Source: Promethearchaeota archaeon (GTDB taxonomy: Archaea > Asgardarchaeota > Lokiarchaeia > Sigyniarchaeales > SOKP01). From it: 55,934 nucleotides of DNA. The notes below the pieces were generated by a model. The model was not told the origin of the DNA, did no database searches, and saw nothing but the letters and a program-made list of their open reading frames with translations. The stretch is taken from contig JAFGGO010000172.1 of NCBI GenBank assembly GCA_016930515.1, positions 1-55,934 of the forward strand, written 5' to 3'. The position numbers and the translations under genes were made by a program. Positions 39,997 to 43,252 of this stretch are shown one piece after another. Each line of letters starts with the position of its first letter. The first letter of the stretch is position 1.

Positions 39997-40938
39997 ATGG
40001 AGAATCTATTGGTAACCTTGTTGAAAAATTATGCGCAAGAAGTGGATGGCATTTTAGGAGTAACAGTATGCGATCGCGGAGGCTTGGTTATCACATCCTA
40101 CAACGCTGGAGATGACGAATTACTCCTTGGCGCAATTTCCACTTATATAGATTCTTATATCCAAAGAATCAGAAAAGAATTTAATGTGGAATCTAATTTC
40201 TTCAACATAACTACTACAGAAAACAAAAAATTTGCCTTTTGTTCAATGGGATCGCATTCCATTCTCACTACTATTGCTGAACCTAATACTTCGGATGTTG
40301 AATTACGCGTTCTTTCGGAGCATGTTGCAACAAAGATAGAACTACTTTTAAGCGAGAATGAACAAGTCTCGCTTGAGATTCCCGAAATTGTGAAGGTACT
40401 CTCGAAAACTAGAGCTGGAAAATTACCAAACGGTGATTTTAGCAGCAAATTAATATTAACTGGAGATTTCAAAGTAGGAAAGACTTCCTTGATTCAACGA
40501 TTTGTCACAAACAGGTTCCAAGAAAATTATATGTCGACCTTAGGAGTTGAGATTTCTAAAAAAATTTTGGACCTTACTCCTGATACTAAGTTCAGGTTTT
40601 TAATTTGGGATATTGGTGGCCAAAAAATGTTAGCAAAACCTGGATTTTACAATGGCGCTAACGCAGCTTTTATCGTAATCGATAGAACCCGGCCAGATAC
40701 TCTTGAAAGCGTTCCAAGATGGTACAACGAAATTAAAAAGACCGTGACGGATGACATACCAGTAGTGATTGTTGCTAACAAGTCTGATCTAACAAGTAAA
40801 ATCGTTTTAAGCGAAGAAGAGATCAAGGACGAGGCTCGTAAGATCGGGTTTCATTATATCCTCACGAGCGCAAAAACAGGTGAGAATGTTCCAGAAGTTT
40901 TTACATACATCGCATACAAAATTCTTGAGACCATGTAA
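39997..40938 (+). CDS. Roadblock/LC7 domain fused to a Rab/Ras-like small GTPase
   Basis: ILGVTVCDRGGLVI roadblock start; G1 GDFKVGKTS, G2 STLG, G3 WDIGGQ, G4 NKSD, G5 TSAK. Confidence 0.92.
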   Translation: MENLLVTLLKNYAQEVDGILGVTVCDRGGLVITSYNAGDDELLLGAISTYIDSYIQRIRKEFNVESNFFNITTTENKKFAFCSMGSHSILTTIAEPNTSDVELRVLSEHVATKIELLLSENEQVSLEIPEIVKVLSKTRAGKLPNGDFSSKLILTGDFKVGKTSLIQRFVTNRFQENYMSTLGVEISKKILDLTPDTKFRFLIWDIGGQKMLAKPGFYNGANAAFIVIDRTRPDTLESVPRWYNEIKKTVTDDIPVVIVANKSDLTSKIVLSEEEIKDEARKIGFHYILTSAKTGENVPEVFTYIAYKILETM

Positions 40939-41068
40939 TTAACGTTCTTTTCCTATAATAATAAATGTCCATAATGTTTTTATAGCAAAATAATCAAATT
41001 ATTCTAAGATAAAGAATTTTAAATACAATCTTGGAGGTAAGAAATAGAAAAAAGGAGGTAGAAAAAAA

Positions 41069-41998
41069 ATTTCAAATGTATTAAAGATTCAATTCAATGA
41101 CATACTAGCCACGTGAAACGCTGCAGGATATTTGATGGGTTTTTCGATAAAAGAAATCAAATATAAGGAGAAATATTTGTTATTCCTCACGGATCCTACA
41201 AATGCTGGCCCTAGGTTCAGTTTTAAACTAAAAGGAAAAAATATAGGAACCATTCCCGTCGTACTTAAAAATATAGAACCCACTCCAATTTATAAGCTTG
41301 TAAACAGTAGAAAAGGCTCATCAATACATAGGATAACATTAGACTTCGATATAAAGGAATACTTGAAATCATTCATCAAGGAGAATAAGATTAAAGCGAT
41401 TACATTTAAAAACGAGCAACATCTCATTAGATTATATATTGATATATTCTTGTACCCTCACGAACCATACTTGATTTCGTTTTTTACCTTGAAAAACATG
41501 TCGGATTTCAACTTGATAGATTTTTCAATGTACTTTGTCTTTGATTTCGATGTGAACGGTTTGGAAGGATACGACAACGATTACTCAGGATACGATATAG
41601 AAAACGACATTATTTATCAATACGATATGACTAAGCTTTACGGTGGTTTTTCTACAATATCGAAACCTACCCATTTCGAATCTAACTTGACCAAAGATCT
41701 TACAATTAACAACGAAAAGCTAAACCTTACCAATGAATTGTACGATAATCAAGGAGAATTATCATCTGCTTTACAAATCGCATTCATTACCTTGTCTCCT
41801 GGAAATTCATTCCAAACCGCTTTCGTGCTTTCTGGAGGCATAAACAAGGAAGAAATGATTAGAAATATAACGGAAGGGAAAAAAAGGGCAATGAAATACT
41901 TGCATCAGGTAAACAGATCGATCAAGACAGAGCAGCGAAACTTACAAGATCCAGCGTTTAACGACCTAAATTTAAAGAAAGCTAAGGACTGTAAATAG
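41069..41998 (+). CDS. Putative selenoprotein (Sec16 at UGA 41114-41116), beta-supersandwich-like fold; the ORF track calls only 41132-41998
   Basis: Frame open from TAG 41045-41047 except for one TGA: (M)SNVLKIQFNDILAT-U-NAAGYLMG. SD GGAGGT at 41054-41059, then ATT at 41069. SECIS-like hairpin in the 3' UTR. The 41132-41998 core is confidently coding. Confidence 0.65.
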
Positions 41999-42070
41999 CC
42001 TCGATGATGACTTAAATAAAAAAATCCGAAAGGACATTTATTTAACGAATACCTCTTTGCGAGAGGGAGG
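41999..42070 (+). promoter_or_regulatory. Eukaryote/Lokiarchaeota-type SECIS element (form 2)
   Basis: AUGAC (42007-42011), UUAAAUAAA, AAAA bulge, UCC-GAAA-GGA ministem, CA, UUUAUUUAA, CGAA (42046-42049): tandem G.A core and perfect 9-bp helix II. Confidence 0.78.
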
Positions 42071-42121: not shown

Positions 42122-43252
42122 TTATTTTTGTACGAAAAATCCTACTATTCTCAGTTTATTTTCGAACTTATTCAATTCGGTGATCACGCCTTTTAACCCT
42201 GAACCATCGTGAACTAAAGGTTTATCCAAGATTATTTTTATTTCTCCAGAATTTCCTGGTGTTAATTCCGTCCCTTCCACAAGTTTTACTGGAGATATTT
42301 TTAATTCTGTGAGAGCGTAATATTGAGAACCGTCCCCTGGCTTAATAGTCCCTCCCTTAGGCTTATAAAACTGATTAACATGCACCGTCGCTGTAATTTC
42401 GTTCTCTCGTTTAAAAACTCCTTGCGAGACGATCATATTATCTCGACTAACATCGGCAGGAGATATGGTTCCTTTTAAGGCTAGGCCGACGCGATCTCCT
42501 TCAATTGCGTTTTTAAAGTCTCTATCATGCTTTTGAATGCTTCTTATAATAATTTTTTTTGATGGTCCTCCATCGTATCCTGTTAACTCCACCATTTCGC
42601 CTGCATTAAGAGTTCCGTTTTTCACCACCCCTAAAATGACTGTTCCAATCCCTTTTACAGGAAATACATGGTCTATTAATACTTTCGTGTAATGCTTTTC
42701 TTGAATATTTAAGCTTGATTTTTCGATTCCGATTTCAATAACTTTCTTTTTGATTTGTTCGTAAGCGTCTTTATCGTCGTCTTTTATTTCGAGAATGTTA
42801 GCATCTTTTAAGCTGGTAGTATTGAGAATGATTTTAACCTGTTTTTTTATTTCCTCTAATTTCCATTCAGTTTTTTCGTTTATCCCCGCGATTACGACTA
42901 ATGGTTTCGTGTCAAACATTTGGTGGAACATGTCCATTCCCACTAATAATTCGCCTACCACGGCGTTTAGACCATCTTTTAAGTCAATAACTAAAATATG
43001 AATGTTTGTGATCGTTAGCGTCTGTAAGAATGGTTTTATTTTATCGGGATAATCAATAGGTGTTAATGCACAAAATACTTGCCCTAATCCTGCGTCAAGC
43101 CTGTTGTAAAATTGAATATCTGACTTTGTTCCCGGGGAGCCTAACGCTTGTCCTATAAGGTTTCTCCGTTCAAAATTTTCTCCAAAAATTCCAACAAGAA
43201 AATTTTTTTCGCTTCCTTCGCTCATGTGCAATTTTAATGTTTTGTAGCTCAT
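42122..43252 (-). CDS. Archaeal SelB-like (aSelBL) translation-factor homolog with degenerate G domain
   Basis: ALGSPGTKSDIQFYN, YPDKIKP, IDHVFPVKGIGTVILGVV, IRSIQKHD, GDRVGLALKG; P-loop replaced by GENFERRN. Confidence 0.82.
   Translation of the reverse strand: MSYKTLKLHMSEGSEKNFLVGIFGENFERRNLIGQALGSPGTKSDIQFYNRLDAGLGQVFCALTPIDYPDKIKPFLQTLTITNIHILVIDLKDGLNAVVGELLVGMDMFHQMFDTKPLVVIAGINEKTEWKLEEIKKQVKIILNTTSLKDANILEIKDDDKDAYEQIKKKVIEIGIEKSSLNIQEKHYTKVLIDHVFPVKGIGTVILGVVKNGTLNAGEMVELTGYDGGPSKKIIIRSIQKHDRDFKNAIEGDRVGLALKGTISPADVSRDNMIVSQGVFKRENEITATVHVNQFYKPKGGTIKPGDGSQYYALTELKISPVKLVEGTELTPGNSGEIKIILDKPLVHDGSGLKGVITELNKFENKLRIVGFFVQK

Follow-up and report, generated by a model that had tools for sequence, protein, structure and literature searches.

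A likely new selenoprotein family in Asgard archaea, built on a stand-alone beta-supersandwich and decoded through an in-frame UGA

A gene in the window, by which we mean the entire 55,934-nucleotide stretch of Promethearchaeota DNA analyzed here, carries an in-frame UGA at codon 16 that is very likely read as selenocysteine (Sec), an inference drawn by comparison and without RNA, protein, or selenium evidence. Its product very likely belongs to an Asgard-specific selenoprotein family, present in three classes and absent from the 2016 to 2026 catalogues that we searched, which in all likelihood uses an already known decoding system. A preliminary description made from sequence alone had proposed a new selenoprotein with a eukaryote-type SECIS. 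That proposal is supported by conservation of UGA or Cys, by covariation in the SECIS, and by the Sec machinery. The places it gave for an ORF continuing upstream through one TGA, the Shine-Dalgarno (SD) sequence, the ATT codon, and the 3' hairpin all held; it missed the lower helix, the side hairpin (42052-42066), and the start that gene callers probably choose, Met22 (41135). The features of the locus are as follows.

39997..40938, + strand: Roadblock-small GTPase fusion, the upstream neighbor, found upstream in two Loki families
41054..41059, + strand: Shine-Dalgarno sequence GGAGGT, from sequence and homologue comparison
41069..41998, + strand: full gene, 309 aa, a stand-alone beta-supersandwich plus C-terminal helices, from the frame, an AlphaFold2 model, and a fold search
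41069..41071, + strand: probable non-AUG start ATT, inferred; ATG is aligned here in three same-genus genomes
41114..41116, + strand: in-frame UGA very likely read as Sec16, with UGA kept in 101/101 close loci and Cys in CxxC homologues
41135..41137, + strand: Met22, the start in public gene calls (public protein records), giving a truncated 287-aa product
41990..41992, + strand: Cys308, the only Cys and candidate partner of Sec16, with a C-terminal Cys conserved in homologues
41999..42070, + strand: extended element with lower helix and side hairpin (42052-42066) in a three-way junction, with covariation in helices 1 and 4
42007..42049, + strand: lokiSECIS core, with AUGA/GA, helix II, A-run, and apical ministem, type II-like, from pattern and covariation
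42122..43252, - strand: short convergent SelB/EF-Tu-like gene, near the family gene in 27 loci

The frame remained open to the TAG at 41996-41998 with a single in-frame TGA, giving 309 codons in which Sec16 is joined by one Cys only, at position 308. The criteria for a selenoprotein were met: a conserved in-frame UGA with coding conservation on both sides, homologues with Cys, and Sec machinery in the genome. TGA was read directly at the same codon in 98 of 101 Lokiarchaeia (Promethearchaeota) loci, partly redundant and sharing 53 to 83% identity, and the remaining 3 kept the SD, the start, and the UGA, with a short insert directly behind the latter. Because these three apparent exceptions are insert-bearing UGA genes, UGA is present in 101 of 101 close loci. 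We checked whether homologues start after the UGA, and they do not: across 82 distinct full-length genes, the 12 codons ahead of it were of coding type, conserved at positions 1 and 2 and variable at position 3, and this pattern broke into stop codons from codon -14 outward.

The same column holds Cys in more distant members. The second Cys of a CxxC motif aligned with the UGA in the proteins of Promethearchaeum syntrophicum (QEE16515.1; locus tag DSAG12_02345) and Candidatus Lokiarchaeum ossiferum (UYP48442.1; locus tag NEF87_004727) and their family, and CxxU was found in other Loki lineages, in all 13 Thorarchaeia loci read, and in three Borrarchaeum loci. In an alignment spanning 16 to 67% identity, the Sec/Cys column was one of three invariant columns; a check for Trp, Arg, or Gly at this position among the homologues compared found none, only Sec or Cys. 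Elsewhere UGA serves as an ordinary stop, including as the terminal stop of this same gene in several genomes, and a changed genetic code is therefore excluded.

The 3' element begins with an AUGA core at 42007, 8 nt past the stop, and continues through a 9-bp helix, an A-run, and a 3-bp ministem to a GA at 42047-42048. Criteria for a lokiSECIS, taken from earlier work (PMC11227280, PMC4989117), comprise a covarying upper stem of 7 to 15 bp, loop-opening adenines, and closeness to the stop; all were met, with AUGA before the stem, GA after it, and a tie to Sec genes. Folding energy alone was not unusual (z -0.73) and an Rfam search of the element returned no SECIS match, so the case rests on conservation and covariation; SECISearch3 likewise detects nothing in Asgard genes (PMC11227280). 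Over 55 sequences, helix II was 99.8% paired, with two-sided changes in 6 of its 8 pairs; covariation was also seen in the lower helix, the ministem, and the side hairpin. The whole structure was 92% paired, compared with 28 to 49% for slid controls. The strict lokiSECIS pattern, allowed at most 60 nt from the stop, occurred at only 2 of 4,786 long ORF ends in the genome, those of selD and of this gene (short Sec ORFs such as vhuD fall below the length cut), and a looser scan also recovered the elements of hdrA, vhuD, and prxL. A side hairpin similar to that of the window follows the SECIS of selD, hdrA, vhuD, and prxL in this genome as well as that of the Thorarchaeia copies.

Counts of SECIS among homologues are by pattern, because a covariance model built from Loki 3' untranslated regions (R1) proved too sequence-specific, missing the Thorarchaeia elements and the other SECIS of this genome. 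The pattern was present behind 80 of 82 close UGA genes (one more had a single mismatch), all four g8 genes, all 13 Thorarchaeia loci (6 to 8 of 8 pairs), and two Borrarchaeum loci, and behind none of nine Cys genes, where the covariance model found nothing either. Thorarchaeia elements were wholly different in sequence and kept the shape, their stop codon being the UGA of the AUGA core; 10 of 13 had GA and 3 of 13 had UA. A canonical SECIS was not found by pattern in four distant UGA copies (f3, f4) or in L019. Three UGA genes without a canonical SECIS (L104, L109, and L114) had in common a short hairpin directly past the stop, which may be a divergent element. As separate observations, elements on contigs C18, C67, C75, C122, C130, and C43, together with that of the window, had one more small hairpin on the 3' side of the GA core, with a lower helix closing it, and a well-formed lokiSECIS at C67:38928 (- strand) lay 140 nt from the contig end with its gene cut off.

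The genome encodes the machinery that such decoding requires. SepSecS was matched at an E value of 1e-112 and SelD itself contains a UGA; a PSTK-like gene was full length and scored under the methanococcal cut-off, an EFSec-like gene of 473 aa fell just under its cut-off, and the best selB match lay on contig C27. A tRNA-Sec with a UCA anticodon was split across the ends of contigs C27 (123585-123631) and C134 (32764-32660), and joining these ends placed it between EFSec and SepSecS in one cluster. Rfam and ARAGORN both overlooked this tRNA-Sec, its gene being divided between two contig ends and carrying an insert; the insert, of about 30 nt in the T-loop, is intron-like in look. With the hairpin conserved and the Sec machinery present, two further checks on the preliminary description also came out in its favor.

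Translation likely begins at a non-AUG codon behind a strong SD, as inferred from comparison within the family. The GGAGGT at 41054-41059 stands 9 nt ahead of the ATT at 41069, and of 79 homologues scored, 72 had GAGG 8 to 12 nt ahead of the start position (mode, 10 nt). The codon equivalent to this ATT was ATA in 69 of 82 homologues, compared with 33% ATA among other Ile codons, and lay about 10 nt past the SD, often directly behind an in-frame stop. ATT or ATA is likewise the predominant start in another gene family of this lineage, so we regard the non-AUG start as a habit of the lineage rather than as control special to this gene. A crude genome-wide count of AUH starts showed no enrichment over background, and the start codon therefore rests on the family comparison. 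Several genes of this genome (for example, on contigs C57, C158, C6, and C88, and prxL on C130) were seen to have ATT or ATC behind a strong SD and no ATG close by, some of these codons directly following an in-frame stop; AUH starts might be common in the lineage. The codon for Met22 was ATG in 82 of 82 crown-group homologues and encoded Phe in the outgroups. Those public records of UGA versions that we checked begin at Met22 or at another codon past the UGA, and the Sec hairpin is thereby lost. A short product from Met22 remains possible as a by-product.

Four distinct inserts of 28 to 32 nt, none a multiple of three, were found one base past the UGA (L069, L084/L157, L094/L221, and L158), and those of the genomes concerned with a known assignment all belong to one genus. 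Each insert can form a 4-bp helix between two 3-nt bulges, and cutting both bulges behind their second base restores the frame one base past the UGA; two passed a strict bulge-helix-bulge (BHB) test and two are relaxed forms judged by eye. The inserts are likely tRNA-type mini-introns, although their splicing is inferred. Reading three “Arg” homologues as frameshifts was rejected, as they are intron-bearing UGA genes.

AlphaFold2 models of the 309-aa protein (pLDDT 91.7, pTM 0.90) and of the Cys form from P. syntrophicum (pLDDT 90.9) both placed the Sec/Cys motif at the first beta-hairpin, with residues upstream of the UGA forming strands of the fold. No signal peptide or membrane segment was seen in the protein sequence, judged by eye. 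The earlier guess of a galactose mutarotase-like supersandwich held over the whole domain, and the best structural matches were not the mutarotases (Z 12-13) but the N-terminal domains of GH94, GH15, and GH116 (Z 18-20). Aldose 1-epimerases (mutarotases) depend on a catalytic His and a catalytic Glu, both conserved; in two alignments of the present family no column was an invariant His or Glu, and the protein does not qualify as one of these enzymes. Searches of Pfam, NCBIfam, and PDB sequences gave no significant match for family members, and in the ESM Atlas only unnamed Loki and Thor clusters were found. Membership in the known Asgard selenoprotein families (SelD, FrhA/VhuU, HdrA, FrhD/VhuD, Prx-like, AhpF-N, and DsbA-like) was likewise not met, so the earlier claim that the protein matches none of the known Loki selenoproteins also held. 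Five Asgard families were described in 2016 (Mariotti, PMC4989117) and seven, found by homology search, in 2024 (Huang, PMC11227280); a 2026 review (PMC13188914) lists 11 archaeal and 119 prokaryotic selenoprotein families, none with this fold. The literature searched, in which subscription papers were mostly uncovered, held no description of the family, its locus tags, or non-AUG Asgard starts.

A profile search found the family in 211 of 379 Asgard genomes, with about 200 stand-alone copies. Stand-alone copies occurred only in families with SepSecS, a pattern rather than a statistical test since related genomes are not independent, and several Sec-using families (f5, f7, f9, and f20) were without the protein in the genomes searched. 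The three clades carrying it are those previously named as Sec users (PMC11227280). Weak profile matches in other Asgard families were rejected as orthologues, being sandwich domains within proteins of 600 to 1,900 aa. Because the Cys forms fall in two groups inside Sec-bearing lineages in the tree, CxxU, the form of Thorarchaeia, Borrarchaeum, and several Loki lineages, is inferred to be the likely ancestral site, with the reservation that the root rests on long branches. The Cys versions do not mark a loss of Sec machinery, an idea rejected because SepSecS was kept in 13 of 14 f2 genomes.

Every full-length member seen had a second Cys in addition to the Sec/Cys site. Copies from Thorarchaeia and Borrarchaeum lack the tail and carry CxxU, several Loki lineages combine CxxU or CxxC with a C-terminal Cys, and in the large clade that includes the window copy the first Cys is replaced by Leu or Phe and all 82 members have the tail Cys, at most 6 residues from the C-terminal end in 81 of them and at most 8 in the remaining one. 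Some copies depart from these forms: distant ones (P0018, P0020, P0035, and P0038; L159-L163) have CxxCxxC without a C-terminal tail and DsrE and hypD among their neighbors; a CxxU copy (L112, genome G038, an assembly with N runs) is fused to a C-terminal vWA-like domain, recognized by eye, and adjoins hypD; and two genus g8 genomes hold, about 2.3 kb downstream, another incomplete and broken copy of the 3' end of the gene (L115:129-218, - strand, and G022:C10), which in L115 carries its own SECIS.

The genomic neighborhood leaves the function unsettled. The Roadblock-small GTPase gene was not seen beside Thorarchaeia, Borrarchaeum, or f4 copies. The convergent SelB/EF-Tu-like gene has domain II and no Pfam GTPase match, and was rejected as the true EFSec given the better selB match on contig C27. 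Among the loci compared, no redox gene and no CAZyme was a constant neighbor; a GH2 gene lay two genes upstream in f2 only.

The complementary pattern of Cys residues, in which CxxU is kept wherever the tail is missing and the tail Cys wherever the first Cys is missing, fits an attacking Sec and a resolving Cys, and a redox enzyme or switch is therefore our leading reading. Among selenoproteins, CxxU is the customary redox motif (PMC13188914). In the mechanism proposed, translation would start at the non-AUG codon behind the strong SD and UGA16 would be decoded as Sec through the 3' lokiSECIS with EFSec and tRNA-Sec. The product would be a soluble (cytoplasmic) stand-alone beta-supersandwich bearing Sec on the loop of its first beta-hairpin, where Sec would attack or be oxidized and a partner Cys would resolve it; the sandwich probably binds a partner or substrate whose identity is unknown. 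Lokiarchaeia copies would have gained the C-terminal Cys, and the large clade of the window copy would then have lost the first Cys, leaving Sec16 and Cys308, an order of events that is inferred. The replacement of CxxU by a Sec16-Cys308 pair, which the preliminary description had thought conceivable, is likewise inferred, supported by conservation only and without distance data. Taken jointly, Sec insertion and a selenol/thiol redox role are in our estimation as likely to be wrong as right, the redox role being inferred with no RNA, protein, or selenium evidence; against it, no substrate was identified, and the known relatives of the fold are noncatalytic domains of glycoside-active enzymes. 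On a bolder reading, the family dates back to the common ancestor of Loki-, Thor-, and Sifarchaeia and brought a new redox chemistry to a supersandwich scaffold, in the form of the long-range Sec16-Cys308 pair that replaces CxxU, and some lineages can express it only through three unusual steps together: initiation at a non-AUG codon, excision of a tRNA-type intron one base past the Sec codon, and SECIS-directed recoding of the UGA; we lean slightly against accepting this in full.

The main rival, which remains possible, is a true selenoprotein whose Sec and Cys are ligands of a metal (Zn, Ni, or Fe-S), as in a metallochaperone for hydrogenase or cluster assembly. With its place at a hairpin tip and a Gly after it, the CxxC is reminiscent of a metal knuckle, CxxCxxC occurs in distant copies, three distant loci adjoin hypD, and genes for a NifB-like radical SAM protein and an FrhB-like protein are close to the Borrarchaeum copies; however, the largest clade offers only Sec and one Cys per chain, too few ligands unless the protein is oligomeric, and the hypD neighborhood is confined to those three loci. 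A selenium-handling protein (carrier, store, or sensor) tied to Sec synthesis appears unlikely. The restriction of the family to Sec-using lineages, a Borrarchaeum copy two genes from SepSecS, and the SelB-like gene near 27 Loki loci speak for it, whereas the absence of the family from Sec-using f5, f7, f9, and f20 in the genomes searched, the persistence of Cys-only versions in genomes keeping SepSecS, and the fact that the SelB-like neighbor is not a real EFSec speak against it.

Less credible still is a protein that acts on or binds carbohydrates, with Sec serving in catalysis or regulation. It would draw on the fold, shared with GH94/GH15/GH116 N-terminal domains and mutarotases, and on a conserved DFDxxG motif common to sandwich domains of large, probably secreted proteins, yet the invariant His/Glu of mutarotases is lacking, the matched domains are noncatalytic, identity is only 10 to 16%, and no CAZyme is a constant neighbor. 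Ranked below this, and also very unlikely, is that the UGA is a real stop closing a leader peptide of 13 to 15 codons, with the main protein made from Met22, perhaps under selenium-dependent control. The ATG at Met22 in 82 of 82 crown-group homologues, public gene calls starting there, and the non-AUG upstream start favor this; against it, the outgroup genes are single uninterrupted ORFs with Cys where the UGA stands, residues ahead of the UGA contribute strands to the fold, the SECIS accompanies the UGA, and g8 and Thorarchaeia copies lack Met at the Met22 position. A pseudogene, a sequencing error, or a genome-wide alternative UGA code can be all but dismissed: the sole point in favor is that the genome is a metagenome assembly, and the same UGA occurs in more than 100 genomes of three classes and is an ordinary stop elsewhere.

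Asgard archaea are the closest prokaryotic relatives of eukaryotes. If the preferred reading as a selenoprotein is true, an Asgard-specific family in about 200 of 379 genomes has a fold not listed among selenoproteins; only 11 archaeal families are listed, and every Asgard one came to light through similarity to a family already known. Counts of the Asgard selenoproteome, from which the origins of eukaryotic Sec decoding are traced, would then be too low, and public records of the UGA versions checked would be lacking the segment with the active residue. The more than 100 SECIS variants supplied by nature would bear on how a eukaryote-like SECIS is read without SBP2, and with Cys versions present in two cultured Lokiarchaeia, the chemistry can be tested with no need for Sec insertion.

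A second unlisted candidate was observed at C43:4387-4860 (L170, with L171-L193), about 155 aa long and with two or three UGA codons close together in the motifs GC-U-U, AD-U-U, or A-U-G-U-U, after which the frame runs on for about 45 codons. Of 24 copies, 18 had a lokiSECIS 125 to 148 nt past the match; the candidate was present in 22 of 25 genomes of the window's family, had no Pfam match, and was not in the catalogues searched.

Parts of this system have known counterparts. In fold, residues 2-283 correspond to the N-terminal domains of GH94 phosphorylases, GH15 glucoamylase/glucodextranase, GH116, and cyclic beta-1,2-glucan synthase (8rf9, 1ulv, 1lf6, 1v7v, and 7w2t), at Z 18.5 to 20.1 and an rmsd of 2.5 to 3.3 Å over about 220 to 235 aligned residues (best match, Z 20.1 and 2.5 Å over 229 residues), and a long, linker-like helix follows the sandwich in both. 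In contrast to these enzymes, family members stand alone at 10 to 16% identity and carry the CxxU/CxxC hairpin; the (alpha/alpha)6 catalytic barrel is absent, as the protein ends 25 to 50 residues past the sandwich. Thioredoxin-like CxxU/UxxC selenoproteins share the CxxU motif and the exchange of Cys for Sec across lineages, whereas the present family does not have the thioredoxin fold, bears its motif on a beta-hairpin, and in its largest clade has Leu or Phe for the first Cys, leaving a distant C-terminal Cys as the sole partner candidate. The BHB-shaped inserts within the coding sequence of four relatives recall the cbf5 pre-mRNA intron of Crenarchaeota (PMC2738675, PMC7714728), except that they sit one base past the Sec codon of an Asgard gene, and the window copy has none. 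The known Asgard selenoprotein genes (SelD, HdrA, VhuD/FrhD, VhuU/FrhA, and Prx-like) differ in family and fold, and the non-AUG start and the lack of a known bacterial counterpart set the present family apart from them. In decoding they are alike: both have an in-frame UGA aligned to Cys in homologues and, near the stop, a 3' AUGA_GA core with a stem of 8 to 9 bp and an A-rich loop, and both occur in the same three Sec-using clades. The ministem is as in the type II element of selD, and the stop of the Thorarchaeia copies, overlapping the AUGA, resembles that of vhuU as described previously (PMC4989117).
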